Shown one piece after another: positions 31,145-56,006 of a stretch of 64,000 bases of DNA. This DNA is from a virus (taxonomy: Duplodnaviria; Caudoviricetes): positions 67,167 through 131,166 of IMG/VR virus record IMGVR_UViG_3300032007_000037; one strand, 5' to 3'. Every line of letters starts with the position of its first letter. The stretch's first letter is position 1. The notes below the pieces were generated by a model. That model worked only from the letters and a program-made list of their open reading frames with translations, did not search any database and was not told the origin of the DNA. Position numbers and translations under genes: made by a program.

Positions 31145-34100
31145 ATGAGCGATATTATTTGTCATTTCTCTCCTAAAGGAGGTATAGATGATAGAATTTC
31201 ACAAGTCCTGACAGGTTATTCAAAAGAGGATATTGGAGCATTGAGAGGTCTTTATGATATGGATCATAAGAAGCCCCTTGTTGTTATTCTTGAAGGTTCT
31301 GACGAGACTAAAATGTTCTCTGGCGAGGATGTTTTAGCAGCTGCTAATGAACTTATGAAATATAAGAATTCTCAAGCTGAAAGACATCTTAAAGAAATGA
31401 AAAGGACGACTAACCATATGGCTAATACGTTTAATCAGCTTTATCACGTAGATGGTTGGAACGCTACTACTCGTAGAAATCGTATTAATATGGTAGCTGC
31501 TGAGTTTACTGCGGAAGTTAGTCGTAGATTGAAAGAGGCTGAAGCTGAAGGTGTCTCTTTAACTAGGGAGCAGGTAATCAACGGATATAAGTCTAATGGG
31601 CAATTTCAGCACGGTCAATTTAGCATTTTTGAGTCTGTCTTTGATAAATTAATGGCTCGTTTTAATAATGCTAGAAAGTTGTTAGCCAAAGCAGAAACCC
31701 TCTCACAAGAGAAACTCGACTCTCTTAAAGAAGAAGATAAACAGAAGATTAGAAATGCCAAACTTATAGCGCAAGAATATCCTAAGATTCTTTCTAATTG
31801 GTCAGCATTGGCAACCTTCGCAAGAATGTCTTTAAGAGATACTGAAAGCCTTAAACTTGGTCAGAATTTGGAGTATGCTTCTCCAACCTCTCCTGATAAT
31901 TTTACAATGGATTCTCCAATGGAGGATTATTATAATCTGGAAGAATCTGTAAGAGAGGCATGGATGGTACATCAGTCTGAAACCTCAGCTTTTGGTTCTT
32001 TGGGTTCTGAAATAAGAAGATTTTTATCTACAATCAACCAAGTTGATGGTAATGGCCAAACGGTGAAAGATGATTTAGGCTATGCCATTAAGATGGATCC
32101 TATTACTTCTCATCAGTATTTAGCAGAGATACTTAGAGGTGTAACTTCTGAAAGTGCAATGATAAAAAAGTTAAGATCATTGTCCGATGACCCTATGGTA
32201 AATGCCATACTTACAGCTCTAGCTAAGGCTTCTCAGGCTGATTTGTCTAAATCTATTGATGACACAAACAGACCTAAAAATCCTGTTATTCTGACACAGC
32301 TACTTCTTGACATGCATAAGAATATGATTCCATATTCTGCGTTGGTAAGAAATAAGGTTGGAAAGATTATTGCCAAAATATTAAATAAAGAAGCCAATTC
32401 ACTTGAGGACGAGTTTGTATTGAGAATGCAAATTAATCAACAACTTGATAAAGGCTCATCAATATATAGTGAAAAAGGTACAGTAGATTGGGAAAAATTG
32501 GCCCAATGGAATGTAGAATCTTCGTTGCTATTACCCTCTCCTAATAAGGAAGAAAAAGAGAGTAAGAATATCTTTGCATCTCAACAATTTTATAGGACAG
32601 GATTTTATGGTAATACTTTTAATAAAATTCAGAGACGGGAATATCTTAAACGAGCCTCTCAATCTTTAGGTATTCCTATGACTGATAAGGCTGCTTATAA
32701 GATTCTTGGTAATAAGGCACTATTAAGTGCATATACAAAAGCTCTTCAAGAATTTAGAACTGAAACTAGAAATGCGTTTAGGGGTGATGTCCTTGATAAA
32801 CTTAAAGTTCTTGAGACTTTTTGGAAGACAGAACATCCTACAATGGAACAAAAGGCTGAGTATAGAGAAGCTTTAGCTGACTTAAACAATAGAAATATAA
32901 AGTTTAACGGAAAAGGAGATACATTTTTAGGCAAAACCTATGGAGGTAATCAGCAGCGGTCTAAAGGCGCTGGTATGGATAGGGTTATCAAGATGCTTGG
33001 TATATTAGCGTCTGTTACCAATAATCTTAAGACAGAGCGCAGAGTCCCTTGGTTTGATAGAAAAGGAAAGACTAATTCCAGATATTCGGATAGAACCCCT
33101 TCTTATATGGGAGACTTGGTAGATAAGCTTCATGAGTTTGTAGCTGAAGGTGATGCGCAAGGTCTGAAAGATTTCATTATGGATAAATGGGGACAATCTT
33201 CGTTCTTCTATGATAAGTCTACAGGTAAGTTCTTGAATAAGTGGCTTCAAGAACTGTATGACTCTATAACAAAAGATTCTAAAGTTAATAATGATGCAAT
33301 GGCTAAAGTCTTTAAATTTGATGAATTTTTAGGATCTAACATTGATAAGACTGTATCTATTTTTGAAAACTTTACGGAGAAGCAACATGCTGAAGCTATG
33401 CTTAAGCAATTCTTACAGGAAAGAGACAATAATAAAAAATCTACTTTAGCTAAGTATCCTTGCTTTATTCTTGGAGATTCAGGTGCTCAGATGTTTTTTA
33501 CTGCTCATCATTATAGTAAAGCTGAAATACTTGAAGGATTAAAGGACGTTGCCAAGCAAGAAAGAGAAAGAATTAAGTATGTTAAGGCTACCAATGAAGT
33601 TCTTGAAAAGGGTGGTTTTAAGAAGATTGATAATTTCTCTCAGACTGCCAATGAATTTACTATGCTAAAGTTTCTTAATAGTGACTTTGAGAATGGTAAA
33701 TATTGGAAGATTCTTACTGGTAATCAAGATATGACAGATGCTGAAATGAAGGCTTTGGATAAGTCTAAAGCTGTACAACAAGCATTAGAATCGTTTGAGA
33801 ACCAGTCTTTGGAGGAAGCTTTAAATGTTTATATGCAAGATGCTCTTGATAAGTTTAATAAAAAGCTTGCATCTGTAGGAATTTTGACGGAGGTTAAGGG
33901 AGAAGGGGGAGTTATTAGTTATAAAGATACTAAGGGTTACTTCAATCAAAATCTTGATCTATATGGAAATAACATAGAAGAGATGTTGGAAGATTTCTTC
34001 TGGAATACCAAGTATGCTACTATAGAACAACTTCAACTCTTTACTGTTGATCCTGCTTTCTATGACCATAGGTATCCTGTAAAAGACTTACAGAAACGCT

Positions 34101-37100
34101 ATAAAGAAATTTATGCTCCAGGTAAAGGCATATCTTTGGAGGCAAGAGATTATAAAGGTAATCTTTATGTGAATAGGCCCTTTGAGAAGGCTGTTTACTT
34201 TGATGATATATCTGTTAGTTCTGAAGATGTTAACCCTGCTTTCTGGAATATGCTTAAAGAGACTTTTAAAGGCCAACCTGAGGTGCTGAATGCCTACAAA
34301 AAGAATTCTCTTACCGATGGTCAGGGATACAGGTCTTTAAAGAGCTACAGAGCCGTTATGGGCATGGCAGGACAATGGACCCCTGCAATGGAAAGTGCCT
34401 ATAATAGAATTATGGACATTAGGAATAGTGGACAGCCCATTACTGAAGAAGACATTAGGGAGCTTGCACAGCTTGCTACAATTTTCCAGCCTATCAAACC
34501 TTATATGTTTACCTTGGAGAAGCTTCAAATTAATGATGATGGTGACACTGCTTTAATTCCTGTGCAGCATAAATATGCAGAAGTAGTATTAATCCCAGAA
34601 CTGATGCTGGATGGCAAACTGAAAGATGTTGCGCAGTGGATGGAGGATAATGATGTTGACCTTGTAGCTTCTACTAAGTGTGTTAAAGTTGGGGCTTTTG
34701 GTAGTGTTGATCTTAAGGGTGTTGATACTGCTGATGCTATTCAAGGAACACTTAACAGGGCATTCATTCACAATCTTTCATGGGCAGACTATAGAATTCA
34801 GTCAGGTGTACCTGAGCATTTAAATCATGCTCAATTATTTGGTACTCAGATAAGAAAATTAATTCTTGCTAACATTAATAAGAAAGATGATTATCAGCGA
34901 TATTTGAAGAATATCTTTAGGCAGACTACCGACGATCCTTTAGGATTGAAAGTAGCTCTTCCTGGAATGGGCAATGTTCATCTAAACGGCAGAAATCTAA
35001 TCAGCTTTTATAATTGTCTGATAATGGCTAATCTCTTTGATAGCTATGATGATTTTGCTAACAATGCCGCTACTAATCAGGAACTTTCTGATAAGATGAT
35101 TCAAAACATTACTTCCAATGCTAATCAGGCCGAAGATAATGCATTTGGTTTATCTCTTATTGATGAAGGTGATAATGCTGGGGACTTTGTAGTACCTCCA
35201 GGGGAGCCGGGAATGGAACATGATGCTGCTGCTTTATTATGGTCTTTATTCAAAAAGGCTGTTAACAAACAGAAGATTAAAGGAGGCTCGGCTGTTCAGG
35301 CTTCTCCTTGGGGTCTGGCAGAAACAAAAGCGTCTGATTTTATTTCTGGAAAAAGAGCTACTGAATGTGGCGATTTGTTTGAGGTGGTTAGTCCTGAAGG
35401 CGACAATGTTCTTTATGATGAAATAGAGATGCCTTTTAATCTCAGCTATACTGCTCCTGGAAGAAATGGTAAAAGAGGTAAGACTGTACCTTTAAGGTTT
35501 GAAGATTGGTGTAATACTGATGGAACCCTCAAGCTGTCCGACCAAATAGTCTATGGAGAAGATGCAAGAGAGTATCTATCTTGGCCTGTAAGTGGTAGGG
35601 ATAAGTTTGGTAAGGCTATTGATCCTGAACAGGGTTATTACATACCTCTTATTGAAACTAAATATAAAGGCATTCTTGATATTATAGCTTATCGTATTCC
35701 TACTGAAAGGGATTACTCCATGATTAACTGTAAAGTGTTCAGGTTCAGTAATCCTCTTGCAGGTGGTACAATGAAAGTCCCTTCTTCTAGAACTACCACT
35801 GCTGGTTTTGACTTTGATATTGATAAACTCTACTTCTTTATGAGAGAGTTTGCTCAAACACATCTATCAAAAAAGCAAATTAATGATATCTGGAACGCTA
35901 TCTATGGTTTGAAGTTTGATAAAGGAGGGGAAATAATAGGAGGTAATGAAATATATCAAGCTCTTAAGCAAGCAAAAGCATTAGATATAGAGGGACAGAA
36001 GAGATTAGGCAGTATTGCAAGCTTGTTTAAAGATAATATGTCTGGCATAGGTGATTTGAACAGTCAGAGAGATGTAGAAAGTGAACTATATGACTACTGG
36101 GAGTCTGCTGGATTAGAAGGCACCCCAGAAGAAGCGTTTACTAAATATCTTGAAAATCATCGCAAAGAATATCCTATATTTGATGTTTATGACCCAACAG
36201 TCTCTCCTTTGAATCCTGTAAAGAATAATAAAGGTGAGGTTGTCACTAAGGGTAATAGTAGAGCAGCAAGAAACAATATGTTGATTGATCTCATGCGTCA
36301 AAGACTGATGGATAAAGAGACATTAAAAGCTAGATATACTCCAGGTGGGTTTGAAAGCAATAGGGATGCTGCTCTTAGAATGAGGGTTCTCCAGTTTGCT
36401 GATAAAGCCAGTATTACCACTGATGGTAAAATTGACTGGTCTAAGGTCGATAGTTATGTTCAGGAGATTAAAGATAAGAAACGGAAAGATCCTGAACCAG
36501 AGTATGATCCTTCAGACCCAACAGCTGTCTTAGTGTATAACCAGCAGAATCAGGTAGCAGCCAAGTTAATTGGTATTTTTGCAAATCAAAATACTAATCA
36601 TGTTTATGCTTCAACTATGCATGAGCTAAAACTTGCTACCCCGCTCTATTTTGGCAACCACACCAAAGAAGGACTTGAAGACATGTTACATGCTCCTGAA
36701 GGTATTGATGTAGATACTAATGTAGCAGAGTATCTGGCTGCTTCTGTAGATGCTGTTAAAGATCCAGTATTAAACTTTTTGAATCTTAACCTAGTAACTG
36801 CTGATGCAGGAGCTTTACTTGCTAGAATTGGGTATACACCTCAAGAGATTGGTTTATTATTCAATCAACCTATTATTAAGGAACTATGTGATTATGCCTC
36901 TAACAACAACGTTGGTACTGACATGGCAATCTCTCAGATGATGTCTAAGTATGGTGGGAAAGACTTTGCTTTCGATAAGAACTTCTTATATGACAAATCT
37001 TCTACCACAACTGATAAATTAGCTGACAATATCATTGAAGCTAGGAATTTTACAGAAAACGGTTCTAAAATGTCAGATGCATTTAAAAGGACTCAACTTC

Positions 37101-38977
37101 ATGTGTTGTGGCTTTTTAATGAGTTAATGGCTGATACAACAGATCTTAACTCTTTTGTTCAATGTACTAGATTTACTGCCGCTAATTCTGTAGGTTCTAC
37201 ATGGGGTGATTTGATTGCCCAAGAAGATAGAGTTAAAAGATTTATCGACAAATATCAGAAAGAGGATGACGCTGATGAGGAAAATGAAGAGAATAAAAAC
37301 AGGAAGAACCAGAAAAGACTTGTTTTCCAATTATTCGATCCTGAAGATAAATCAAACAGAAGTGTTCATGTTGAAAAAGCAAACTTAGGTACTACTAATA
37401 AAGGTATTCTCAATATCGGTGAAGACGTTCTAAGTTTAACACCTGAAGAGTATATGTCTCAGATGTCAAGGAATCCTCTAGCTTTTGAGCAATGTATGAT
37501 GGACTTAACTAGGAAAGCCGCTGAGCAATTATTCTCTAGACATTTCCCATATTCTACAAAACTATATAAGAATATGAGAGATACAATGAACCATCTTACA
37601 AAGTATGGAGTGCTGGACGCAGATGTAATTAATAGCTTGCATAGGGAGTTTATTGTTTACCTGTTATCTAAACAGAAAGGCAGTATCTTCGATGGTGAAG
37701 CCTTGTCTGGATTTGAAATAGAAGATATCCCTGTTACTAACAGAGAGTATTATACCACTCTGTTCCCTAATATTCTTCAGGTGCTTAAATCTGAAAAATT
37801 ACTAGCGAACCACCCATTCTTTGATGCTTTGACCATTACAGGTGATGGGGAGAGTATGGAGAACCTGAAGATTACCGTTCAAGGTATGGGAGGTCTTCAG
37901 ACTAATGCATCTAATATACTTACAGAGATGTGGGCAGAGGCTTATAACTCTGATGATGTTGTCCACAGTGCCATGCTAAACATGGACTTTTCTATTAAAG
38001 ATCTTGCACAAGGCATGTATCTGTATAACTTCTATAAATTAGGTTATAATTTCCATCCTACTTCTACAATGAGTCTTGCACCTACGTTAATGAAGCTGGG
38101 TTTAAGGGTTAATACAGATACAAGAGAAGAAGGTTATATTGATTTTATCAACGATGTTATCAAAGGCAATGTAACAATGGGTGCTGATGATATGATATCG
38201 TTTGCTAAACAATATATCCTTAATCATCTTGACAACAAGAAGATTGTATTCACACCTGTTGGAAATGCTAGAAATGCTTTATCTGGAGCCTACAATACCA
38301 CAACAAATAGTTGGAATGACTCATTTACAATATCTTATGAGCAGCTGCCTAAGAATGTTAGAAGCCTATTTACTCTTAGCGATAGTAGATTAAAAGGTAC
38401 ATTAAAAGCGTTTAGACCTGTTATAGCTATTGAAAGAGATGGAGTCACTGTATATTATATGGCAGATTCCAAATCTGAAATCGGTTTTAATATTACAGCT
38501 ACGGGTGATGGCAGAATGACTTATAAGAGAGTTCATGCTCAAGGTAGTAAAGGTCAACAGATTCAATACTTTGGTCATGCTTCATTTGAGAAGTACCAAC
38601 AAGATGCTGGTAAAGCTAATAGAATGAGTAGTAGCCTTCAACAACAGTCTCAACAAACTGATGTTTCTCAAAATTCTGTAGACACAGATATTATTGATGG
38701 AATACCAATAGAAACTCCAGATGGAAATCATATTGAAGTAGGCCAAGATATATCAGGAATGTTTACTGATGCAGAATGGAGTAAGATGATATCAGACTTT
38801 AGACAGATGTATCCTCAAGATACTCAAGGAGTTCATGATAATGAGATTAAATCGTTACTTATGGACACGTCTGATAATCAGAATGTTGAAATTCTTAACG
38901 ACTTATCAAGAAGACTTGATAGAGGAGAGAAAATGCAGACAATTGATATTGAAGGCAAACCGATAGATGTTTGTTAA
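31145..38977 (+). CDS. virion-packaged single-chain two-barrel DNA-dependent RNA polymerase (crAss-like)
   Basis: 2610 aa. Catalytic loop AGFDFDIDKL, plus TDGQGY, YRIPTE and VDAVKDP motifs. Confidence 0.9.
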   Translation: MSDIICHFSPKGGIDDRISQVLTGYSKEDIGALRGLYDMDHKKPLVVILEGSDETKMFSGEDVLAAANELMKYKNSQAERHLKEMKRTTNHMANTFNQLYHVDGWNATTRRNRINMVAAEFTAEVSRRLKEAEAEGVSLTREQVINGYKSNGQFQHGQFSIFESVFDKLMARFNNARKLLAKAETLSQEKLDSLKEEDKQKIRNAKLIAQEYPKILSNWSALATFARMSLRDTESLKLGQNLEYASPTSPDNFTMDSPMEDYYNLEESVREAWMVHQSETSAFGSLGSEIRRFLSTINQVDGNGQTVKDDLGYAIKMDPITSHQYLAEILRGVTSESAMIKKLRSLSDDPMVNAILTALAKASQADLSKSIDDTNRPKNPVILTQLLLDMHKNMIPYSALVRNKVGKIIAKILNKEANSLEDEFVLRMQINQQLDKGSSIYSEKGTVDWEKLAQWNVESSLLLPSPNKEEKESKNIFASQQFYRTGFYGNTFNKIQRREYLKRASQSLGIPMTDKAAYKILGNKALLSAYTKALQEFRTETRNAFRGDVLDKLKVLETFWKTEHPTMEQKAEYREALADLNNRNIKFNGKGDTFLGKTYGGNQQRSKGAGMDRVIKMLGILASVTNNLKTERRVPWFDRKGKTNSRYSDRTPSYMGDLVDKLHEFVAEGDAQGLKDFIMDKWGQSSFFYDKSTGKFLNKWLQELYDSITKDSKVNNDAMAKVFKFDEFLGSNIDKTVSIFENFTEKQHAEAMLKQFLQERDNNKKSTLAKYPCFILGDSGAQMFFTAHHYSKAEILEGLKDVAKQERERIKYVKATNEVLEKGGFKKIDNFSQTANEFTMLKFLNSDFENGKYWKILTGNQDMTDAEMKALDKSKAVQQALESFENQSLEEALNVYMQDALDKFNKKLASVGILTEVKGEGGVISYKDTKGYFNQNLDLYGNNIEEMLEDFFWNTKYATIEQLQLFTVDPAFYDHRYPVKDLQKRYKEIYAPGKGISLEARDYKGNLYVNRPFEKAVYFDDISVSSEDVNPAFWNMLKETFKGQPEVLNAYKKNSLTDGQGYRSLKSYRAVMGMAGQWTPAMESAYNRIMDIRNSGQPITEEDIRELAQLATIFQPIKPYMFTLEKLQINDDGDTALIPVQHKYAEVVLIPELMLDGKLKDVAQWMEDNDVDLVASTKCVKVGAFGSVDLKGVDTADAIQGTLNRAFIHNLSWADYRIQSGVPEHLNHAQLFGTQIRKLILANINKKDDYQRYLKNIFRQTTDDPLGLKVALPGMGNVHLNGRNLISFYNCLIMANLFDSYDDFANNAATNQELSDKMIQNITSNANQAEDNAFGLSLIDEGDNAGDFVVPPGEPGMEHDAAALLWSLFKKAVNKQKIKGGSAVQASPWGLAETKASDFISGKRATECGDLFEVVSPEGDNVLYDEIEMPFNLSYTAPGRNGKRGKTVPLRFEDWCNTDGTLKLSDQIVYGEDAREYLSWPVSGRDKFGKAIDPEQGYYIPLIETKYKGILDIIAYRIPTERDYSMINCKVFRFSNPLAGGTMKVPSSRTTTAGFDFDIDKLYFFMREFAQTHLSKKQINDIWNAIYGLKFDKGGEIIGGNEIYQALKQAKALDIEGQKRLGSIASLFKDNMSGIGDLNSQRDVESELYDYWESAGLEGTPEEAFTKYLENHRKEYPIFDVYDPTVSPLNPVKNNKGEVVTKGNSRAARNNMLIDLMRQRLMDKETLKARYTPGGFESNRDAALRMRVLQFADKASITTDGKIDWSKVDSYVQEIKDKKRKDPEPEYDPSDPTAVLVYNQQNQVAAKLIGIFANQNTNHVYASTMHELKLATPLYFGNHTKEGLEDMLHAPEGIDVDTNVAEYLAASVDAVKDPVLNFLNLNLVTADAGALLARIGYTPQEIGLLFNQPIIKELCDYASNNNVGTDMAISQMMSKYGGKDFAFDKNFLYDKSSTTTDKLADNIIEARNFTENGSKMSDAFKRTQLHVLWLFNELMADTTDLNSFVQCTRFTAANSVGSTWGDLIAQEDRVKRFIDKYQKEDDADEENEENKNRKNQKRLVFQLFDPEDKSNRSVHVEKANLGTTNKGILNIGEDVLSLTPEEYMSQMSRNPLAFEQCMMDLTRKAAEQLFSRHFPYSTKLYKNMRDTMNHLTKYGVLDADVINSLHREFIVYLLSKQKGSIFDGEALSGFEIEDIPVTNREYYTTLFPNILQVLKSEKLLANHPFFDALTITGDGESMENLKITVQGMGGLQTNASNILTEMWAEAYNSDDVVHSAMLNMDFSIKDLAQGMYLYNFYKLGYNFHPTSTMSLAPTLMKLGLRVNTDTREEGYIDFINDVIKGNVTMGADDMISFAKQYILNHLDNKKIVFTPVGNARNALSGAYNTTTNSWNDSFTISYEQLPKNVRSLFTLSDSRLKGTLKAFRPVIAIERDGVTVYYMADSKSEIGFNITATGDGRMTYKRVHAQGSKGQQIQYFGHASFEKYQQDAGKANRMSSSLQQQSQQTDVSQNSVDTDIIDGIPIETPDGNHIEVGQDISGMFTDAEWSKMISDFRQMYPQDTQGVHDNEIKSLLMDTSDNQNVEILNDLSRRLDRGEKMQTIDIEGKPIDVC

Positions 38978-38999
38978 ATAGATTAATCTAGATTCAGAT

Positions 39000-41900
39000 A
39001 TGGCAAATGCAAGTTGTTCATTAACGTGTAATGTTAAAGATCCTAGGACTGGTAAAATAGAGGTTAGCTCTTTATGGGAAGACTTATCTAAATTCTTTAA
39101 GGGTGACAGAAGACAAGCTGTCACCCACTACTTCCTTACTAAGGATAATAACTTCCTTCGTGAGAATAGTGATATTCTAGAATTTAATGTTGATGGTGAG
39201 GTTACAATTTCTTCATTAAAAAAAGCTCTAGAAAGGGACGGAGAATATAGTAATCTTTCCAATGCACGAACTAGAGAGCATCTTAATAGAGAGCTTAAAG
39301 CAGGCAAGTATGATTACTCTGAAGCTCTCGACAATGTGCTAAGATTTAATAAAAGCAGTCAATTCAATGATAATTGGATGGCTACTTTAAAGAAGGAGAA
39401 CGATGGAAAATATTCAATAGAAGTAGTAGAAAGAACCCCTGACGCTGAATATACTTTGGCGGATCATGTTCAAAATAAAATTCTTACCGATGCTATTAGG
39501 CTTATATTAAAAGATAAGGGACTGTCGGTTGAATTCTTGGATAATCCAAGTTATGCGGTTCAATATAACACTCAAAATATACAACTGGATGCAGAAGGCT
39601 TAATGTCAGTTGCTCAAGTATTAAACGGAGTAAACACTGCTCCTGAAGTAGCTGAAGTAGCGGGTCACTTTATTGTAGCTAGTATGCAGGACAGTCCTTT
39701 AGTTCAGAGACTCATTAACCTATTAGACACGGATGTGCAAAGAGCACTGTTTAGAAATGAGAAGTCTGAATTAAATAGGGACGATTTTATAGTGGCTGAT
39801 ACTTCTGCTAAAGAAGCTGCTGGCATCTTGCTGGGTAGGGCTTTACTAGAACCTATTGAAAAGGCAAAAAAAGGTAATTGGTATTCACCTGCTAATTTAG
39901 GCCCTGTTATTCCTAGAGCTATTAAGTGGTTACTTACAAAAATTGTAAATCTTGCACAAAGAGTATTAGGGACTTATACTCCAGATGAAGTTGGCAAGCT
40001 AATAGCTAAAGCTAAAAGTGCTGCTTCTACGGCTGCTATGGGATTCATTAATAATCCTGAAGAGGCTGATGTAGAAGCTGCTTTAGCGGCCCCATCAACA
40101 TATAGAAGTGGAAGTTTGTCAAAAAGAATGGCTGATAATGTAAAGAGGAATATTGTAGCCTACTATGATACCTTAGGAGGATTGAAGGATGTTGTCTCCA
40201 GACTAAGAGAATCTATTGGAAGATCTGAAAGTCCCACCAACCAAGATATTATGAAGAAGCTAAAAACTCTTGTAAGGGGTGTTTCAGCAAATTACGAATC
40301 TCAAATGAAGTTTGAAACTCTCGCAAGAGCTGCTTCTATAGAAGGAATAGTTGTTACTTTGGAAGGCCTTACTCAGATTCTTGATACTGATGTTAGGACT
40401 TTATTGGAGCAGATACAGCCTTCTAATAAAGTTAGTGCATTTCCTCAATTGGTTTCCAATGCTAGAAATCTAAGGACTGTAAACACAGCTATAAAAAATA
40501 TTGCTCAAATATATGAAACTATTCAAGGCAGAATAGACTCTTTGAGTGCTGAGGAAGTTGTTACATATCGTGATGCTGATGACAATATGGTTATAGAAAC
40601 TCTCAGAGAAGCCGTTAAAAGATTGGGTGATGTGTTAGTAGGTAATAATGAGACCTTTATTGATAGACAAGGACAAGAGAGTACTGTAAATGGTTTACAA
40701 GGTTTGTTAGAGTCTAAGAGAAGGCAGATATTTATAGATGCACTTAGGGATTTTTACGGTCAAGACACCATTAATAAATTTGCAGGTGTTGTATGGCAGC
40801 AGAATGGTTGGATGCCAAAACTTGTTAAAACAGAAAGAAGGGAAAAAGAAGTAAGAGATTTTGCTGATTCTCTTGAAGAGGATATATCATGGTTTGATAG
40901 ATATCTAGAATCTGCCGCAGATTGTGGAGACTTTGTAACAGCAGTTGGTAATAAACAAGTTAAGCAGGCTAACATGAGTGCTGATAGATTGGCATTTATG
41001 TTCTGGGACCGATTAGAAACATCTAGGCTTCAAATGGAAGAATTGTTCGGTAATTCTGATTGGACTCCTCTGTTAGAAGTAGTAGAGGTAACAGATGACG
41101 ATGGGAAGATTCTTGGCAAAGTAAAGTCTGGTAATTTTGTATCACAACTTAATTATGGAGCGTGGGAGAATGCTAGAAAAGAATTTAAAGAGTCTCTAAA
41201 ACAAAGTTGGAATGAACATTTAGCCAATCTTAGAGAAGCTTATTATAAGAATAATAAAGGTGGGGCTTTTAACCTTACTGACCAACAAAGAGCTGTCTTA
41301 TATCATAATTTTGTAGATCCTCTTTGGAAAAAATGGCATGTAGAACATTCTGAAAAGGTGAAGACCACGTTTGGAGAGAAGTGGGTCCCAAACAGTTCTA
41401 AGTATAAAAGTAAACAATGGGAAGAACTATTTGGCGTTAAAAATCCTAGTCTTACTGAAGAGGAAATAAGTCTTAGACAAAAAAGATTAAAGTGGTATAA
41501 TTCTTTCATGGAGATAAAAAAGAATATGGACGAATTACTTCCTACAAATGCTACTGTACCTTGGAGGGCTCCCCAGATGACTGGCAGATTTTCTCACAGA
41601 TACAAGAATCTTAATGCTAAAATGAACAACAGTCGTGCTGCTTTTGGTAATGCCCTAAGAAGAAGTATGCAGGATTGGGCTGTTATTAGGCCTGATGAAG
41701 CGTGGATGTTCGGTTCTAACAATGAGTTTAATGAACTGAATGAGGATCCTTTAGAGGATGAGATGTATTTCCAGAGGGAAAAAATAAATAGACTTCCTGT
41801 TTTTGGCATCAATAAGCTAAAAAATATGGAAGATTTATCTACTGATATTTTTGGGACGATGATGCAGTATGGTTCTATGGCTGCTACTTATCATGCAATG

Positions 41901-43991: not shown

Positions 43992-46376
43992 CTACTTCTT
44001 TGTTGACTGTTTTGCGATCTGTTTCTCTTTTACCTTAATATCATCTTTATGCATTCTTTCATCTGATTGAAGTTTAGCATTAAATTGTCTAGCTTGTTCA
44101 GCTATCTTCTCTCTTTCAATTACACTAGTTTCATCATTATCATGATTCATAATAGCCATACGTTGCTGTTCGGCAACAGAATTGATCTGAGCAATAAGTA
44201 TATCTGCTTCAAGTTTTTCTTGATGCATCTTATATTCCATCTCTGCTTTCTGCTGTTCCATAGCAGCCCTAGTCTGAATTTCTTGTTGCTTGAGTTGCAT
44301 CTGTTGTTGCATTTCTTGCTGCTGCTGAGCAATAATCTTCTTCTCGCAGTTTTCAACAATTCTTTGCTTCTCAGCCATAGATGTGGTAGTAAATATCTTC
44401 ATCATTGTAGAGAAGTCAATCTTATTATTCTGAAGACCTGCTTGAGCCAGACCTTCTAACTGTTGATTCAACTGTTGAGCACCATTACTATTGTCTACAA
44501 CAAGGCCGTAGTCACATTCAGCAAACTCATCACCATCAAATTCTACAAGAAGTTTACTGCCATCTGAAAGAATGTTATCAAATTTTATCTTTCTACCCTT
44601 AAAGGCAATCTTAGCAGTTTCAAGAAGGCATTCTAAAACTCTCTTCTTTACACTTTCATGAATGATAAACAACCACTCTGTGCTATGAGAAGATTGAAGA
44701 GTAGCCCTTTCTACACCACCAACTGTTTCTCTATTAGATATTTGTCCTTCTCTTTGCTTAGATATGCCTGCAAGTTCTCCTACTTTGTTTGAAATCCATT
44801 CAAGATAATTTATATACTGAGTAATCTCTTGACCAAGAGAAGCATCTACAACACCTGTAGAAGCATTGTTAAGACTTCCTACGGGCTTACCAGCCATTAT
44901 TCCTTCACCTTCTTTGGCACTGTCTTCTACAACAATTCCGTGTGTGTGAAGATAATATAACCATTCATCAGGTTCCCAACCCTTTGGAGTTTTTGCAAAA
45001 TCTAATTTAATGGCTTTACCTATATTCCTAGCAAGTGTCTTGTTTAATCTGTCATGAACCACATCATACAGATATGCATAAGGCTTCATAATATCAACAA
45101 GGCTAAAAGGAGTTTCGCCATTGCTTGAATAAATAGAACCTATCACGCCCAAATGACACTTAGAAGGATTACTAAGCCTATTGTATTGAATTGGTCTAGG
45201 CCCCATATCTACATAGATATCTTTACCTATCTTCGTACCTCCCCATGCTTGATTAATCCAATATACCTTCTCTTCCTCACCCTTATTAGGATCTATCTTA
45301 TAATCTTCATCATAGAAGTTAAAAACCTCTTCTCCTGTTTCAGGGTCATAACTCTTAACTTTCTTAATTTTTCTACGAGAAATCCAGTATACTCTAAGAA
45401 CTCTAACATTTCCATTCAAATCGTATGGAAGCAGGTTGTGTTCACTTTCATCTGAAAAAAGGGTTAAAGGATCTATCTCTTCATCACCTGCTACGAAGTC
45501 TTCTCTGGGTACAAAACCATAGCGAGGGTCACGGTTAGCCATTGAATCAGTCCAAGCACTATTATTAGAATCAGCACCATTTTCTATATCATTTATTTGT
45601 TGCTTAGTTAATTGGTCATAGTATGTAGTTACTATTTTTCCAGGATTCCAATATTGCTCAATGATTATCATATCAGCATCTTCTACTCTGGTAGATGTAC
45701 CTGATCTAATAATTCTAACTTCTCTTGGATTAAGTTTCTCTACATAAGGCTCCCCTCCTACTATATCAATATGATATAATTCTTCTCCCACACACTCAGC
45801 ATCTTCAAAGCCTTCATTGAATAAGATAGGCAAATCCAGTTCTTTTGAATAATGATTCAATACTAGATTAGCCCTTATCTCACGTTTGTCTTGATATTCA
45901 TATGTAAAATAATCAGATTGTTTTTGCAATTCTTTTTGGAAATCTTCTTCACTTTGGGAAGTATCCATGATTAATTCCTGCAACCTCTGATTAACTAATT
46001 CATTCTTTTCCTTCTCCATTTCACTAATGGCAGAAGGATTTGTTATAACAACTCTATAGTCAAACAGTCTCCTACTTTCCTCTCCTTTCAATACTTCCAA
46101 CTTACTATTAATAATTGGATAGTGCTGTATATTATCGGGAATATATGAAGCTTCTGTGTGGAATGGATTAACAACAAGAGCCAAATCATCCATATGAATT
46201 TTATCACGTAACAAATCATAATTAATCTGCATTGCTTTGACAGACTTCCTTGTAACGTGGTAATGCATAAAGCTATGTTTATCGGCAAAATCCACTACCT
46301 TTTTTCGCCAAGTTTTATTCTTAGCCCTAAATGACAATTGCTGAGATGGAAAACCACCTAAAATGTTATATGCCAT
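43992..46376 (-). CDS. portal protein (crAss-type)
   Basis: FPSQQL..K...W, IQHYPII..K..VL.GEE, GISKQREGQI..RETVGGVER and a Gln-rich C-terminal coil. Start re-called at MAYNIL. Confidence 0.88.
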   Translation of the reverse strand: MAYNILGGFPSQQLSFRAKNKTWRKKVVDFADKHSFMHYHVTRKSVKAMQINYDLLRDKIHMDDLALVVNPFHTEASYIPDNIQHYPIINSKLEVLKGEESRRLFDYRVVITNPSAISEMEKEKNELVNQRLQELIMDTSQSEEDFQKELQKQSDYFTYEYQDKREIRANLVLNHYSKELDLPILFNEGFEDAECVGEELYHIDIVGGEPYVEKLNPREVRIIRSGTSTRVEDADMIIIEQYWNPGKIVTTYYDQLTKQQINDIENGADSNNSAWTDSMANRDPRYGFVPREDFVAGDEEIDPLTLFSDESEHNLLPYDLNGNVRVLRVYWISRRKIKKVKSYDPETGEEVFNFYDEDYKIDPNKGEEEKVYWINQAWGGTKIGKDIYVDMGPRPIQYNRLSNPSKCHLGVIGSIYSSNGETPFSLVDIMKPYAYLYDVVHDRLNKTLARNIGKAIKLDFAKTPKGWEPDEWLYYLHTHGIVVEDSAKEGEGIMAGKPVGSLNNASTGVVDASLGQEITQYINYLEWISNKVGELAGISKQREGQISNRETVGGVERATLQSSHSTEWLFIIHESVKKRVLECLLETAKIAFKGRKIKFDNILSDGSKLLVEFDGDEFAECDYGLVVDNSNGAQQLNQQLEGLAQAGLQNNKIDFSTMMKIFTTTSMAEKQRIVENCEKKIIAQQQQEMQQQMQLKQQEIQTRAAMEQQKAEMEYKMHQEKLEADILIAQINSVAEQQRMAIMNHDNDETSVIEREKIAEQARQFNAKLQSDERMHKDDIKVKEKQIAKQSTKK

Positions 46377-46402
46377 AAAAACTTTCTTTGTATTTCTAAA
46401 TA

Positions 46403-46463
46403 CAAAAGTACAAATACTCACTTCAGCAACCTAAAACCTAATAAAAGATTTAATGAGTACTTA
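46403..46463 (-). promoter_or_regulatory. portal promoter
   Basis: On the minus strand: TAAGTACTCATTA (46463), ATTAGG (46442) and TACTTTTG (46410-46403). Confidence 0.65.
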
Positions 46464-46508: not shown

Positions 46509-46514
46509 CTGATA

Positions 46515-47006
46515 TCAAGAATTCAAGTATTTCCAAATCTTCTCGTTCCCATATGGATTATCTGCATCATCCAAATAGTTCACAGCTTCTTCTACTAGTT
46601 TATCTAATAACTCTTCATTAGATGCTTGAGGGAACCATTTCTTTAACTTGTTGCAGTTATCTGATTTAACCATGTTCAGAGTAACCTCAAAATCATAGAA
46701 ATTGTAGTTTGGAATATTACCCTTTACTTTATCATATATCAATTTAACCTCAGGCTCAGTCCAGTAAGGTGCTTGGTGTTTAACACCAGTTGTATCTATA
46801 TAATAAAATTTAGCAATTACTTTATCAGCGAAATCCCTATTAAAGTGGCCACCATTAGTACCATAATAAACTTTTGTCTTAAGGACATCTTTTTGTTTTT
46901 CTGGTACAAACTCTTCGATGGCATCACTGAGGATTTTGGTAATACACCACATTTTATCTGAACCTTCTCCTCTGAGTCCTTCTTTAAGGATACTGTAGAC
47001 ATCCAT
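46515..47006 (-). CDS. hypothetical protein, second gene of the inserted cassette
   Basis: GHFN..FA, APYWT, YNFYDFEVTLNM.KSD, YLDDAD and KIWKY motifs. Confidence 0.75.
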   Translation of the reverse strand: MDVYSILKEGLRGEGSDKMWCITKILSDAIEEFVPEKQKDVLKTKVYYGTNGGHFNRDFADKVIAKFYYIDTTGVKHQAPYWTEPEVKLIYDKVKGNIPNYNFYDFEVTLNMVKSDNCNKLKKWFPQASNEELLDKLVEEAVNYLDDADNPYGNEKIWKYLNS

Positions 47007-47009
47007 ACA

Positions 47010-47669
47010 TTAGGCCCCTGTTGTGGGAGTTGTTTTAGAAGCATTTACAGCATTGAGAATTCTCTGTTCACTGAGCTGGCTCTGAAGGGAGTTGATGATA
47101 CCCTGCTGCTCTTGACTCCAGTGATTACTCAGTGTGTCAATGATTCTCTGAGTATTAGCTAAAGAAGCCTCCTTAATATCACAGGCGTTTCTCTCCAACT
47201 GATAGCCTATAGAGGTAAATCCATTGGTAACAGTATTTGTAAGGGCTTGACTCTGTTGCAGGATGGTATTGGTCTGCTGACAAGTACCCAACTGGTTCTG
47301 GTAGCCCTGAGACAGAATCTCTGTCTTGATGCCACACATACCACTCTGCATCTGAGAACTCATAGCGTTGATAGCTGCCTGTACATTATCAGTGCTTGTG
47401 TTCAGCACACCTGCCAACTGAGTAATTGCGGCTGTATTGCCTGCTATTGCCTGCATAGTCAGATCGTTGTTATGGTTGTCAGAAACCAAGTCACTGAGGT
47501 TTTGGATTTGTGCAGCATTTGCAGCACCGTTATTGCCCCAACCAAAACCGCCATTACCACCAAAGAACATCATCCACAATAGGTAGATAAAAGGATTGTT
47601 CCACTGACTGTTAGCACCACCGTTGTTTGCCATTGCAGCAAAATCTGCATAAGAAAGATTGTTTTCCAT
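47010..47669 (-). CDS. Asn/Gln/Gly-rich protein with one hydrophobic segment and a coiled coil
   Basis: WNNPFIYLLWMMFFGGNGGFGWG, GYQNQL.TCQQTN and NTQRIID motifs. Confidence 0.8.
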   Translation of the reverse strand: MENNLSYADFAAMANNGGANSQWNNPFIYLLWMMFFGGNGGFGWGNNGAANAAQIQNLSDLVSDNHNNDLTMQAIAGNTAAITQLAGVLNTSTDNVQAAINAMSSQMQSGMCGIKTEILSQGYQNQLGTCQQTNTILQQSQALTNTVTNGFTSIGYQLERNACDIKEASLANTQRIIDTLSNHWSQEQQGIINSLQSQLSEQRILNAVNASKTTPTTGA

Positions 47670-47797: not shown

Positions 47798-47813
47798 TTT
47801 ACTCATTACCAAT

Positions 47814-50800
47814 TTATACATGACCTCCGCAATCTTTCTTTAACTTCTTGATTCTAGCTAAGAAACCATCTTCGTCATTAGGATTAACAGCATCCGCTGT
47901 TCCTTCTGGTGAATCATCGACTCTTACTTCTTCAGTACCACCTTGTTCGTCTAGGAAAGATGTATCACTATTCACATCAAATCCTAATCCTTCGTCTGCT
48001 GGGGACATCTTTTGCTCTTGAATAATTGGTTGACTGTTAACAATTTCTTCAGTAGATGTAATCGTTTCTGCTGGAGTGTCACTCTGATCTTGAATAGCTT
48101 CTACTATAGCTTCTTTCTCAGCGTCAACCATCTTATCAAAGCTTGCTACTAATTTTTCATCAGACAATCTATTAAGCTTGAATTCTTCTCCAACTTTATA
48201 ATTTGCACTATCAAAGACTTCATATTCTCCTGTAACATTCTTTCGTAATAGTTGATTACTATTAGGTCTTTGTTGTACATAATCTTCATTTGTCTTAGGA
48301 TTAGGATATTCTACTTGAATAGGAATAATATTAATACTAGCTACTTGCAAACCATATTCATCCTCTAGGAACTTTGCATACATAGAGAGCTGCCTATCAT
48401 AACCTTTATTTGAACTCTCTGCTTCTTCTTTGGTAAGTATGTTGTTATGTTTTGTCTTAAAGTCATAGATATGCAAATTGCCATTTCTGTCTATAGCCAA
48501 TACGTCTAGTGTACCTGCTACTCTGACTTCCTCAGTCCCTACGCCATTTTCTTTTTTAACTGTAACGTTCAGCTCACCTTTGGCTGTAATATGACCAGGG
48601 TTATACTCACCATTCTCAGTATAGCTAGTCTGAATAATAACCTGACCTTTTCCCCTTAATCTAGTTTCAAATGCCTTAAGAGCTGCATATGCCTCGGCAT
48701 AATTTTTTGATGTTGAGTTGGCATACCTTTCAAAGGCAGTTAATCTTTCTTGTTCCGACATATTGTCAAATACACCATTAAAGACATCCCTACCAAATTC
48801 ATCAATACTATCACCTAGTTTAGAAGATACTGTAGCATAGGGACTATTAGGATCAAATCTTTCTCCCATTTCATCAAGAGCATATTTGATTGAAGTGACC
48901 CTTGACCAAATTTGTCCCTGTATAATATAATGTCTGCCATCATTTGTTAAGTTTCTTGTTTTAGAATCTTCAATCATTTTGTTAACGGCATTTATTATAA
49001 TCTTTGGTATACTGCTGACAATAGATTCCTTTGATGAGGGCTCAACTATCATACCTGTATCTCCATCAACAACACCTGCTGGGCTGTCTGTCTGTCCTAC
49101 AGGAAGTTGCTCTGTCACAGTAATAGCAGCATCAGGAGTAGGAACTTTATCTGTGTAAAGTTCATTTCTCATCCTATTATTAATGTTAACTTCTACACTT
49201 CTTGAAGGATAGACTAGTTTGGTCATTTGCATTTCCCAGATTCCATCATCATATAACTCTTCTAGATTAGTTCTAGCAGCTTCTCTGGCCTCTTTGGTAG
49301 AAGCATCATGCATACTGTTTACATCCTCATAGTTTACTTGAAGTTTAACGGCATCATATCTGGAATCATCTTTACTCTTTCTGACATTTCCTTCTTTATC
49401 TAAAATAAGATCTTTTAAGAATAATGCATATTCAGCTGGGCTTAACTTTTCGTTATACCTAGTAGTAAGAGTTGAAAGGAGGTTCTCATCAGCTTTTGCC
49501 CCATAATATGCTTTTATGCTTATTACCTTCTCCGCTGGTAAACCTTCTCCTATCTCTACATCAACAATAAGAGAGTTTCTACCAACCATAAGGTTGTTGT
49601 TTATAGCAGTCCTAACACTTTCTCCAAATTCAGAAAGAGTTTTTTTAAACTGACTAACATTAACTGGATTACCATTTGAATCAAACAATCCACTAGGAAG
49701 CTTTATTTTGGAAAGCTGATTAAACAATCTCCTAAATCTAGAATTAGAATTAATTATCTCCTGAGAATTGGTTCCTTCATTATCTACTTCTCGAAGTTCT
49801 TCTACAATAGGACGACCTGTGTTCTTATCTGTAATATTTTCCATATTCTTTAATAGAACAATCTTCTTCAAAGAGTCATTGGTTCCCTTTTGTATTCTGA
49901 AATCAAGTTCTTTACTATTAGGATCATCAGCATCTTTGCCAGGAACCTCCCTCTTTACTAGTCTGTCTAAGAATGTCTTTCGCATCTTTTCATACAATGA
50001 AGTTTTTCTAACTTCCTGAAGACTGTTTATCTCTTTTGCTTCTTGATAGGATTGTCTTTCTTCTTCGGTAGCATTAATCAAAGTTTCTATATCAGAAGCA
50101 ACATTTTCCTCCATCAATTGCTGCACACTCGTCTTGGGTGTTTCTTGAGTTCCATGCGGTATGGCATCTTCTTCTGTATGACTGTTTATATGAGCTTGGT
50201 CTACTGGCATTGTAATTGTAGTGCCGTTATATTTACTTCCTTTCTTAGGAGCATATCTTAAGACATGAGCATCAGAATCTTCCCAATTTATTCTACCTCG
50301 AATTGAACCCATCATTGTGGCAGTTTTTTTCATAGCTTCTGAATCACTTGTCCTAACCTCACTACTAGGCATAACTCCTACTACTTGATACTTATGGATT
50401 TTATTATCGGTCTTGTCTTTAATAGGAATCAACTTGCTTTCGTCATCAATGAGATGTTTGTTCTTATTAGTAATTTCTAACGCTAGAATAACTGGAGCAG
50501 ATATTGCAGCAACGTAGTTATAGCCTTTTCCCTCTATTTCTTCTTTTACTTTCTGAGTCACTGTCGGATCATAAATAAAAACAAATTGTCCTTGATGTAA
50601 AGGCCCTTGTTTTTTATCTTTTTTCCATTTTTCATATTCGTTTGCCAGAGCATCAGAAAATTTCTGTAAGAAAGCTACTACGTTATGTTGTTTGATATAG
50701 TCTTTCCAGACAGGATTTTTAAGAAGTGCATCTAAATCTCTTGATTCTAGAGTGGTAATAGGAGAGTTGGAGTTGGGGAAGAGGGGGTTATTAGTTTTAC

Positions 50801-53800
50801 CATCCTCTTTCTCCTTTACAGTTTCAACCTTCTCTTCCTCCTTCTTCAGCTCCAAATTTGAGAGTTTAGTAACCATAACATCTATCTGAGGGGCTTCACT
50901 TTGGTCTGTTATAAGGGCATCTTCTAAAATCTTATTCTGTAAAGCTTTAATATTAGTGAACGCAGTATTAGCCAAATGCGAAGACATAATATCCTTGATT
51001 TTATCTCTTGTCTGTTCTGGCATTTCCATCTTATTTATGGCTTCTAGTAAAGAGGCCACATCATCTATCAGGTTAGAATTTAGTGTTGCCGCACTGCTTA
51101 ATACAGCATCGTTCTTATCAGATTTCTTTGGTTCTTCTATTGGCTGTTCAATTTTCTTTTTCTTAAGGCCGAATATATCCCTTGTAGCAGGCTTCTCATC
51201 AGGTCTGGGCTCTCCTTCCTCCATAGTAGTTAGAGTTTGTTTTTCACCTTTAACTTCAATAGGAGTGGTGGCCACACTCTGTGGCTGAGTTGCGGTTTCT
51301 TTGGGGGTCATAGCCTTATCAGAGGTTTCTTTGGTCTCATTGAAACTATTAACCACATCGCTTGCTAACTGGGCCATATATTGAGGTTGTACAGAATTAA
51401 CTCTGTCTTCCACACTAACTACTTCCCCATCAGCATCAACAGAATGATTTCTTTCCTCTATATACTTTTGAAAGTCCTCTGTTTGAACTTGTCCTACCAT
51501 ATCATCAGTAGAGAATCCTCTTTCCGCTAAGAAATCTAAGGCTAAGTAAATCAGTCCCTTGTCATTATCTGTCAGTGTTCTATCTGTTGTAATTCGTTCA
51601 GACGTATCAGGTGTTTCCTCAGTATGTTTAACGGTTTTGGATTTTTTTAAGAATCTATCTAATTCTACAACCTTCTTTCTGGCTTCATTTCTTTCTGTCA
51701 AAACATTATCAATACCATCTTGTATAGTCTGAAGATCTTTATCAGAGACAATTCTAGCCTTATCCTTCATTAACTTTTCGGCAGTATCCCATATTCCCCT
51801 TAATATGGCAGTAGAATAATTTCTAGCTTTTTTAGTCATATTTTCTTCAGAAAGGGTTGCTTCGGAGTCATTAAGCACTTCTCTAAAAGCTTCTCCAACT
51901 ATCTTATCGTTAAAGAAATCAATAATATTCTTCTTTCTATTTTCAACCAAAGCTTGCTGAAGGTAATTAGCTCCTATAGGATCCTTCATAATTCTTTTGG
52001 CTGCTTCCATATTATCTTCTATCCTATGGGTTAATATAGCAGCATCCCTTATCCTTTCCATCGCATCATTAAGGACAGTACCATCTTCTACAAGAAGATT
52101 TTTTGCTTTATCTATTTCTTCTTGCTGGGCGTTAGAATAGTCATCCCTATAGTAATCATCAAGCATCCTAAGTCTATCATCAGCATTTAATTTGAGAATA
52201 TCCTTAGCAGATATTATTTGTTCTTCTGCCCCATCAGCAAAGGTTTTTTCATCAGTTTTAATTTTATTTAAAGCAGCCTGCTCTTTGTCTAATCTTTCCT
52301 TTGCAAATATTTCTTCTCTATATCTTAATTCCTTAAGTGTTGCATTCATTCGAATACTTAAATTAGGATTGTCCTCTTTTTTGGCATCTTGTTGGGCTTT
52401 CTCTAGCTTCCTTCTAGCTTCTTCTACCCTTCCTTCCTGAGCTTTAAGACTTCTTTCCCAACCCTTCTTGCTTCCATATTTAGCAAATGGATTACTGGGA
52501 GTATCTATTGATTCTTCCCAGCTAGTTCTATTAGAAATCTTCCCTTCAAGCTCCTTCAATCTTTCCTTGAATCTATCATTCATTACATATTGATACATCA
52601 GTTGCTTGGCAACTTCTGGATGATATGTAGCTCCAACAGACTTAGAGAATTTCTCTTGTAAGTCTTCTGTCTTCTCCATTATATTTAACAGGCCCTGTGC
52701 ATTCTCTTTAAGTCTGGACTTTGCAATATCAATCTGAGCATCAGTAGATAATCCTTCTAATACACCCTTATTAGAATCTAATCCAATGAAGGTCTTTAGC
52801 AGTTCTTTCTGCCTTTCAACTTGTTCTTCATCCGAACTTTCATCTATGGCAGCTGCATCTTCAAGAGTTTGTATAGCCCTACCATAAGAAGTATCCATTG
52901 AGTCAAAGATAGGACTTCCTAATACTGTATTAAAAGCGCCTATTAAGGAATTGGCAATTTTCTTTTTCCTACTCCACTTAGCTTTATCAGGTTCTGCCTG
53001 AGTATTCGTAACAGCACCATTCTTCTTTAAGTCTAACAGTGCCATTGCCAATGTAAATGCAGCTTTATCCTTTGCGTCTTTGGCTTCCATAATACTTGTT
53101 CCTTCTCTACTAGCTTCTACTTGGTTTAGAGAAGAAATTGTCTCTGTCATGTTATCCAACGCATAAGCATGTTCACTTATTGTCTTATTAGCTCTATCTA
53201 TTTCATTTTGTGTTAATCTTGAAGCAGAATGTGCATCGGCAACAGCTTGAAGTATAGGATTATTGACAAAGTCCCCTACAAGTTCTGACCAATGAATACC
53301 TGCTACTTTACTCCCAGATTTTTCAGCCTTTTCAATAGATTCTGCAAGCTGTTTCATTCTCTGTTTATGAGTAATAGCTCCTGCTATATTAGGACTAAAT
53401 GTTACAGGTGCGCCTAAAGCTCCTACTCCACCATCTATAAAGGATCTTTTATCAGCCATGGCCTCTTCTGCTCCAGCCATACCAGCAACAATTGGATTTA
53501 GATAATTATCCAATACAGTACCATATGCAGCGGGATTATACTTTTGCAGCAGATAGTTATTGAAATCTTGTATGCCATAAGCCTTTGCAAACCCCACTGT
53601 TACATCATCAAAATAATTAGACTGAAAGCCTCCCCATATTTGATTACTAACTTGTGCTAAAGCTTTTTTGGTTTTTGCCCATTTTGCTAAAGTATGCTTA
53701 CCGTCTTTAACCGTTGTTCCTAAATAAGGATTATTAACTCCCATTGCCGCCAAAGTTCCTTTATCGAAGAGATAGCTTTTGAATAACCCATTTGTAGGAG

Positions 53801-56006: not shown

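Follow-up and report, generated by a model that had tools for sequence, protein, structure and literature searches.

Three giant cargo proteins encoded by a crAss-like gut phage (IMG/VR virus record IMGVR_UViG_3300032007_000037) carry cysteines at exactly those ends that would face each other in a head-to-tail arrangement, and we think it probable that the three are joined end to end in the particle by two separate Cys-Cys links, most likely disulfides. The window analyzed here is a 64,000-nucleotide stretch (positions 67,167 to 131,166) forming the right half of that complete 131,166-bp record, which has direct terminal repeats; it contains genes for a 2730-residue protein (p2730), an RNA polymerase (RNAP), and a 1617-residue protein (p1617), which together are the RNA-polymerase cargo block of the phage (Table 1). 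Link 1 would pair p2730 Cys2726 with RNAP Cys6, and link 2 would pair RNAP Cys2610, its last residue, with p1617 Cys6; the order of the joined product would be that of the single polypeptides made from fused genes in other crassviruses.

The single cysteine of p2730, at residue 2726 ('...KKDCGGHV'), lies in a tail preceded by an acidic low-complexity linker of ~70 residues. RNAP has 11 cysteines, including Cys6 ('MSDIIC') and Cys2610, and p1617 has six, including Cys6 and Cys10 ('MANASCSLTC'); the two outer ends, the p2730 N-end and the p1617 C-end, have none. The junction cysteines sit at or near flexible tails (the acidic linker and short basic helix of p2730, a Q/S-rich linker at the RNAP C-end, and positions 3-7 at the N-ends), so the ends could meet without docking of the protein bodies. 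Cysteine makes up 0.04-0.42% of the cargo block versus mostly 1-3% of the other open reading frames (ORFs) of the window, a depletion expected if stray thiols would be harmful and one that makes a disulfide plausible. We also considered Cys31 of cargo protein 1 (C1) and Cys4 of the portal ORF as further terminal cysteines and rejected them, because both lie upstream of likely true start codons; for C1, the likely start codon is Met39 of the listed ORF ('MKKDRLY'), and a protein begun there has no cysteine.

The identity of the three genes follows from comparison with cultured and annotated crassviruses. In a PDB search, RNAP matches the phi14:2 gp66 crystal structure 6VR4 (E 7e-20, with 'GFDFDIDK' aligned to 'GSDFDIDK'); it is 36% identical to the RNAPs of DAC15 and DAC17 over 95% of its length and about 25% identical to crAss001 gp50, and its orthologues are phi14:2 gp66, crAss001 gp50, and DAC15 gp076. 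In profile searches, with E-values computed over 13 targets, p2730 matches DAC15 gp078 (E 2e-148) and crAss001 gp47 (E 2.5e-14), and p1617 matches crAss001 gp49 (E 8e-120) and phi14:2 g065 (E 2.6e-11); DAC15 gp077 is also a p1617 orthologue. The cargo block of this clade is only ~25-36% identical to that of cultured Crassvirales. On the minus strand, p2730 is preceded by genes for the muzzle protein, C1, and cargo protein 2 (C2), in that order, and the plus-strand RNAP and p1617 genes run convergently to it; the layout matches crAss001. PHROGs searches with the three giants gave no match, a Pfam search of the three found solely the PD-(D/E)XK domain of p2730, a viral-contig search for loci related to p1617 returned no relative, and PDB searches with p2730, p1617, and profiles of both found nothing meaningful.

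From a collection of 5.8 billion proteins we gathered 51 relatives of p1617, 120 of RNAP, and 120 of p2730. Cysteine is present in the first 10 residues of all 120 RNAP relatives and in the last 10 of 119; in p1617 relatives it is present in the first 10 residues of 50 of 51 and in the last 10 of none; and in p2730 relatives the last 10 residues contain it in 117 of 120 and the first 10 in none. The lone p1617 exception is an N-terminally truncated 990-residue fragment, and one further p2730 relative has a cysteine 12 residues from its end. In 89 of the 120 p2730 relatives the terminal cysteine is the sole cysteine in a protein of 2300-3000 residues. The cysteines RNAP C6 and C2610, p2730 C2726, and p1617 C6 occupy invariant alignment columns at identities down to 29-43% (45 aligned relatives for RNAP C6 and 46 for p2730 C2726); p1617 Cys10 is not invariant, being replaced by Tyr in two aligned relatives (P0044 and P0045). 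In a second, less redundant RNAP sample of one protein per 50% cluster (123 full-length representatives), 117 have a cysteine in the first 10 residues and four more at positions 11-16, and 115 have one in the last 12 residues.

Family cysteine frequencies of 0.42%, 0.45%, and 0.057% lead to expected occurrences of ~4%, ~4%, and ~0.6% per 10-residue end, against 100%, 99%, 98%, and 98% observed at the junction ends and 0% at both outer ones; judged from these sequences, the pattern is strongly non-random and not a product of chance. We therefore regard it as very improbable that the cysteines are a by-product of composition or chance, or that they serve a role unrelated to linking, such as a packaging signal or end stability. 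Such a role would accommodate the RNAP N-terminal cysteine, which sits in a conserved motif and is kept by solitary homologues (see below), but would not account for cysteines that stay invariant through divergence to ~25% identity while neighboring residues change, nor for the absence of cysteine pairs tracking gene fusion. The preliminary description of this stretch, which had located the cysteines of p2730, RNAP, and p1617, noted their absence from the outer ends, and called for a test of terminal enrichment in orthologues, is borne out on all three points: every coordinate agrees with the translated ORFs, enrichment is found at the facing ends, and the outer ends lack cysteine both here and in the relatives (0/120 and 0/51).

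The same rule extends across Crassvirales. We examined the cargo block in 16 annotated phage genomes, and the eight in which the three genes are separate (crAss001, DAC15, phi14:2, cr116_1, bajarodcaudo virus 1, IAS virus, cr111_1, and Dulem virus 41) all have the four junction cysteines and none at an outer end; relative L016 follows the same rule. In crAss001, gp47 has its sole cysteine at 2339 of 2341 ('...ALRCNS'), gp50 has Cys5, 1334, and 2404 of 2412 ('SKRC...' to '...DKICGANTLYEL'), and gp49 has its sole cysteine at 5 ('AKKC...'). In phi14:2 there are only four cysteines in 5398 residues, at position 1797 of g067 (the last of 1797), positions 3 and 2179 of g066 (2180 residues), and position 3 of g065 (1421 residues). 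The three genes of phi14:2, cr111_1, and Dulem virus 41 are colinear in the proposed chain order.

One cysteine alone per terminus is conserved, which makes a disulfide the simplest reading. In the metal bridge that the preliminary description had offered as a variant, facing cysteines would instead share a Zn, Fe, or Cu ion, giving a non-covalent clasp at each junction. A clasp of this kind could form in the reducing cytoplasm at assembly, and candidate ligands are near at hand in some clades, with histidines in 'ICH' at the RNAP N-end and 'CGGHV' in p2730 of this window, in 'HELDC' and 'HELKC' at the C-end of many p2730 relatives, and in 'MIHC' and 'MNHC' in Suoliviridae, together with a CxxxC in p1617 of this clade. 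However, a defined metal site is unlikely because the nearby His or second Cys is clade-specific and absent in phi14:2 ('SNTIC', 'MACK', 'QECK', and 'MSCK', without histidine) and crAss001 ('LRCNS', 'KRCI', and 'KKCA'); no second ligand is conserved, the second p1617 cysteine is a Tyr in the two relatives mentioned above, two thiolates alone make a poor Zn site, and the closest analogue, cyanopodophage A4, uses a disulfide. Metal clasps are thus an improbable explanation of the pattern.

Phages in which two of the three genes are fused bear directly on which ends belong together. RNAP is fused to the p1617 homologue in the Intestiviridae Carjivirus, crAss002, cr107_1, and Rudgehvirus, giving proteins of ~4100-4200 residues that start 'MSC' or 'MAC', so that Cys3 is kept, and that have no cysteine at the C-end. 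Between their RNAP core and p1617-like core there are only isolated cysteines >100 residues apart, with no pair within 25 residues, and the upstream zincin-bearing protein retains a cysteine 1-2 residues from its end. In the Suoliviridae cr1_1, cr10_1, and cr60_1, it is the p2730 homologue that is fused to RNAP (~4500 residues). These fusions have no N-terminal cysteine and no two cysteines within 25 residues anywhere in the protein, and in cr1_1 and cr10_1 there is no cysteine near the join where the homology brackets meet; a cysteine is present 3-10 residues from the C-end, and the next protein begins with Cys3 or Cys5. Profiles of the terminal 400 residues gave no significant mapping onto the fused proteins, so the fused junctions are bracketed between homologous cores rather than placed exactly.

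Facing pairs are thus present or absent as units, each independently of the other, which favors the wiring of p2730-C to RNAP-N and of RNAP-C to p1617-N over any other. The reciprocal presence of facing cysteines for which the preliminary description had proposed a test is what we see, in that each junction pair is lost at its fusion and the other pair stays. Its head-to-tail order of p2730, RNAP, and p1617 and its pairing of ends likewise stand, and are well supported by conservation, by the fusions, and by colinear genes, since the proposed order equals both the colinear gene order and the domain order of the fused proteins; its metal-bridge variant fares poorly, with no further conserved ligand.

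Other wirings are compatible with the bare counts of two N-terminal and two C-terminal cysteines: RNAP could close on itself through Cys6 and Cys2610 with p2730-C bonded to p1617-N, or all four termini could meet in one four-Cys metal node, and RNAP of this clade does have four invariant cysteines (6, 1456, 1915, and 2610). We rejected both arrangements, and consider them most improbable, because every fusion eliminates one facing pair and spares the second. It would thereby take one cysteine from each supposed bond while the other two are conserved, and rewiring would be needed in every fused lineage; the four-Cys node is impossible in fused genomes, which keep one pair only, and beyond the clade the internal RNAP cysteines are not conserved, phi14:2 gp66 having Cys3 and Cys2179 only.

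Alternatively, each terminal cysteine could act alone, bonding another virion component (portal, capsid interior, or C1) or a like chain, with no heterotypic chain being formed. There is some precedent for this in the C1-like proteins of Intestiviridae, whose only cysteine lies 7-10 residues before the C-end, within a 'CGG' motif similar to the one in p2730; the protein that follows them has no N-terminal cysteine, so a terminal cysteine can exist without an adjacent partner, and solitary RNAP homologues keep their N-terminal cysteine. But cysteines acting singly would leave unexplained why the outer ends never carry one (0/120 and 0/51), why exactly two facing cysteines are lost at each fusion with the other pair kept, and why the cysteine-bearing ends are those joined in the fused proteins, and we judge this possibility quite unlikely. 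We note that the 'CGG(K/S)' motif of these gp30-type proteins resembles the 'ACGGKK' end of the p2730 family.

In the disulfide-linked chain that we favor, the bonds would ensure that the three proteins are packaged 1:1:1 and leave through the narrow tail channel in a set order, and would open by reduction in the host cytoplasm; bond formation, the disulfide nature of the bond, its role in packaging and ejection, and reductive release are steps that we infer by reasoning from the distribution of cysteines. The most elaborate form of the scheme, with RNAP in the middle of a redox-gated thread ~7000 residues long, held by two head-to-tail disulfides, loaded 1:1:1 with a fixed exit order, and cut in the cytoplasm to free active polymerase, with the second cysteine of p1617 'CSLTC' perhaps serving in this clade as a resolving thiol that aids polymerase release, is in our estimation unlikely to be correct in full.

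The contact between the p2730 tail and the RNAP N-end expected under the preliminary description was addressed by co-folding RNAP residues 1-380 (45-row alignment) with the last 130 residues of p2730 (single sequence), with a mixed outcome. The score was 0.50 against 0.00 for the best of three controls, but the result belongs to the class 'weak support' and the runs were uneven (0.50, 0.15, and 0.51); the partner had a predicted local distance difference test (pLDDT) value of at least 36, and at least 26% of contacts were common to the runs. In calibration, 58 of 80 solved complexes passed, as did 2 of 110 mismatched pairs, and scores of 0.60 or below were seen for just 7 of the 80 solved complexes and for both of the passing mismatches.

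RNAPs that seem to break the rule fall into recognizable kinds. Eight of the 123 representatives lack a cysteine in the last 12 residues, among them P0331 and P0303, whose gene calls are cut at an in-frame TAG in TAG-readthrough phages; read through TAG they gain 324 and 112 residues and end '...GNPKPQC' and '...GRPDISC', and the next ORFs begin 'MGAYC' and 'MGSC'. P0326 and P0293 also run on through TAG until their contigs end. Readthrough is seen in the cargo genes of several relatives (L020, L023, L019, L025, and L013, with 4 to 17 in-frame TAG), so standard gene calls shorten RNAP and fragment the next protein. A different kind comprises P0394, P0324, and the tandem pair P0408 and P0385, which are RNAP homologues in cellular-looking DNA (guanine-plus-cytosine content 44-46%) located beside genes for ClpB, topoisomerase, aminotransferase, or metabolism, or beside a transposase gene. 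In the DNA available, one contig of which ends just after its RNAP gene, these have no p2730-like or p1617-like neighbor, and they may be domesticated or derive from another kind of element.

Several observations count against the proposed disulfide chain. Internal cysteines are present in this clade, nine in RNAP and four in p1617, and two of those in RNAP are also invariant (C1456 and C1915); the picture of cysteines only at the ends is strict here for p2730 alone. The RNAP homologues in cellular contexts lack cysteine over their final 12 residues, although P0324 carries one 17 residues before its end, and this fits a protein without a downstream partner. They retain the N-terminal cysteine inside its conserved motif, which fits less simply and suggests that the N-terminal RNAP cysteine may do something more. 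Particles are assembled in an anaerobe, whose cytoplasm is reducing, no thioredoxin is detectable in the 131-kb genome, and the disulfides of purified crAss001 could have formed after lysis. A weak co-folding pass such as that obtained here would be more often wrong than right without a strong prior, and we give it little weight. The accessible text of the crAss001 and phi14:2 papers makes no mention of cargo cysteines (PMC10172136; bioRxiv 10.1101/2020.03.07.982082), and the latter, in the part available, reports that recombinant phi14:2 gp66 is active alone in dithiothreitol, so that catalysis does not require the link.

A large number of short RNAP calls stop at '...GFDFD'. Such genes, common among crassviruses, are broken precisely within the catalytic motif ('...GSDFD' then '(M)VDK...') by an insert that carries an endonuclease and is probably a group I intron, and gene callers then list two RNAP 'halves'. 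There is no consistent cysteine at the break at these interruption sites, and a search for extra protein-level RNAP splits among the short representatives found only intron or endonuclease interruptions and contig-end cuts. The terminal-cysteine rule is also of help in annotation: it locates true protein ends in TAG-recoded genomes, separates protein-level splits from intron interruptions, and gives the order of the cargo proteins even where their genes are on opposite strands, as they are here.

Other features of the locus are listed in Table 1. Residues 789-886 of cr1_1 gp077, which occupies the p1617 position, match the PD-(D/E)XK domain of p2730, and a weak p1617 relative, P0051, also carries this domain, which has moved between cargo proteins. 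The only portal gene of the phage (phrog_6547, E 1e-136) sits between the p2730 and p1617 genes; in L016, which is ~70% identical in p1617 and RNAP, only three small ORFs are found at that place, so packaging genes have moved within the clade. The family-A DNA polymerase gene is split in two ORFs by an intron-like or homing-endonuclease interruption (window 17544-20832, plus strand), and two more homing-endonuclease genes are present in the window.

Table 1. Coordinates of the cargo block, its junction cysteines, and other features discussed in the text; positions are those of the window unless another locus is named.
Feature	Position	Strand	Basis or remark
p2730, giant cargo protein, 2730 aa	47814..56006	-	ORF; family profile; directly downstream of cargo genes C1 and C2
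p2730 C-terminal tail, residues 2707-2730	47817..47888	-	Basic amphipathic 'FLARIKKLKKD', then Cys2726, then 'GGHV'
p2730 Cys2726 codon	47829-47831	-	Single Cys of p2730
PD-(D/E)XK nuclease-like domain of p2730, residues 2442-2575	48282..48683	-	Pfam PF12705, E 1.4e-5
RNAP, virion-type RNA polymerase, 2610 aa	31145..38977	+	PDB 6VR4 match; tblastn to crassvirus RNAPs; profile search
RNAP N-terminal motif 'M-x(1-5)-C-H-x-S-P-x-G-G-I-D-D' with Cys6	31145..31210	+	Conserved in relatives
RNAP Cys6 codon	31160-31162	+	Invariant column
RNAP catalytic motif F-D-F-D-I-D-K, residues 1555-1561	35807..35827	+	Invariant columns; aligns with 'DFDIDK' of 6VR4
RNAP Cys2610, last residue ('...TIDIEGKPIDVC', '...PIDVC')	38972..38974	+	Translation; invariant column
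p1617, giant cargo protein, 1617 aa	39000..43853	+	Relatives; profile matches
p1617 N-terminal 'C-S-L-T-C' (Cys6 39015-39017, Cys10 39027-39029)	39015..39029	+	Cys6 invariant, Cys10 clade-specific
Portal gene	43992-46421	-	
DUF7841 protein	46515-47006	-	
219-aa protein	47010-47669	-	Faint small-terminase similarity
C2, cargo protein 2, 532 aa	56024..57622	-	PF25712, E 9e-53; one Cys, at residue 458
C1, cargo protein 1	57660..60992	-	PF25725, E 1e-48
Muzzle protein	61012-63990	-	PF25731/PF25729
LAGLIDADG_2 homing-endonuclease gene	13008-13628	+	E 3e-33
DNA polymerase, exonuclease and N-terminal polymerase part	17544-19331	+	
HNH endonuclease ORF between DNA polymerase halves	19346-20053	+	
DNA polymerase, C-terminal part	20050-20832	+	
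NUMOD4 and HNH_3 homing-endonuclease gene	27476-27841	+	
cr1_1 gp077	L009 25059-31082		Protein at p1617 position
Intestiviridae gp30-type protein after muzzle gene (C1 position)	crAss002 gp30 L007 6105-7778; L011 5412-7790; L012 4573-6846		
Cargo genes with TAG readthrough	L020 1217-9631; L023 7001-14101		
Cellular-context full-length RNAP homologues	L024 7001-14851; L026 2337-9638; L022 3070-17647		
Interrupted RNAP genes	cr116_1 L005 22079-22726; bajarodcaudo virus 1 L006 21759-22490		Also P0357, P0364, P0370, P0387, P0404, and others

No phages are more abundant in the human gut than Crassvirales, and these observations address the question of how three proteins of 150-300 kDa are loaded into their capsid and leave through a channel of <50 Å: an order-wide terminal-cysteine rule, readable from sequence, offers a concrete and testable hypothesis on cargo loading and exit. 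Presence of the cargo proteins in virions is known from mass spectrometry for crAss001 and phi14:2 only. According to the accessible part of the crAss001 structural atlas (PMC10172136), gp45, gp46, gp47, gp49, and gp50 were found in virions by mass spectrometry, with gp47, gp49, and gp50 assigned to a cargo zone inside the capsid; the cargo proteins must partly unfold to pass constrictions of <50 Å, and packing and mutual interactions probably determine the sequence in which they leave. The same source reports inter-subunit disulfides involving gp57, a tail and portal-vertex protein. Disulfides between different virion proteins thus exist in purified crassvirus particles, which makes a disulfide link plausible here, although those of gp57 are at internal positions of folded structural subunits and not at the ends of cargo proteins. 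Compared with crAss001 and phi14:2, the present clade has a larger genome (131 kb), more internal cysteines, and a portal gene between the p2730 and p1617 genes.

The fused RNAP polyproteins of Intestiviridae and Suoliviridae have the same domains in the same order as here, with a peptide bond where the split genomes carry a cysteine pair. In the available portion of the Drobysheva et al. preprint (bioRxiv 10.1101/2020.03.07.982082), the three proteins are described as fused into one polyprotein in some phages and 'likely cleaved'; whereas that proposal has a polyprotein cut into pieces, the pieces here are made separately and, on our reading, would be tied together afterwards. T7 gp14, gp15, and gp16 and N4 gp50, gp51, and gp52 are likewise large capsid-stored proteins expelled via the tail ahead of or with the DNA, and N4 also ejects a giant RNAP. 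The 2026 N4 paper, in its accessible text, contains neither 'disulfide' nor 'cysteine' and describes the assembly as non-covalent (PMC13434306); within the portions available of the literature consulted, which included this paper, the crAss001 atlas, and the phi14:2 RNAP preprint, neither terminal cysteines of crassvirus cargo proteins nor a link between these proteins is described.

The closest parallel is cyanopodophage A4 (Anabaena phage A-4L), for which the available text of a cryo-electron microscopy study reports a disulfide between gp27 Cys1715 and gp26 Cys5 in the pre-ejectosome inside the capsid (PNAS 2025, PMC12002296; PDB 9K2V and 9K3A as cited there). The bond lies beside the gp27 C-terminal helix, which docks into gp26, and its authors, in the same text, regard it as a local stabilizer and report conservation for basic residues, not for cysteines (PMC12002296). 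In the A4 genome, gp27 (1717 residues) has its sole cysteine at 1715, and gp26, encoded by the next gene, has its sole cysteine at 5. A4 therefore resembles the crAss block in having large ejection proteins encoded by adjacent colinear genes, the upstream one with a cysteine near its C-end and the downstream one with a cysteine at position 5, and the same type of signature is present here in p2730 (sole cysteine at 2726 of 2730), in RNAP (Cys6 and last-residue Cys2610), and in p1617 (Cys6). That A4 has exactly this signature together with an observed bond makes a disulfide link in crassviruses plausible. Profiles of RNAP, p2730, and p1617 matched A4 gp26-gp29 at E 0.16 or worse, and no such chain appeared in the PDB searches; because there is no detectable sequence similarity, the resemblance is one of design and not of descent. 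Unlike the crassvirus arrangement, that of A4 has one junction rather than two, includes no RNA polymerase, and is present as pentameric copies about the portal axis. The kind of bond that we propose is thus known from A4, and what is new, as far as we can tell, is an order-wide, two-junction chain with an RNA polymerase in its middle.

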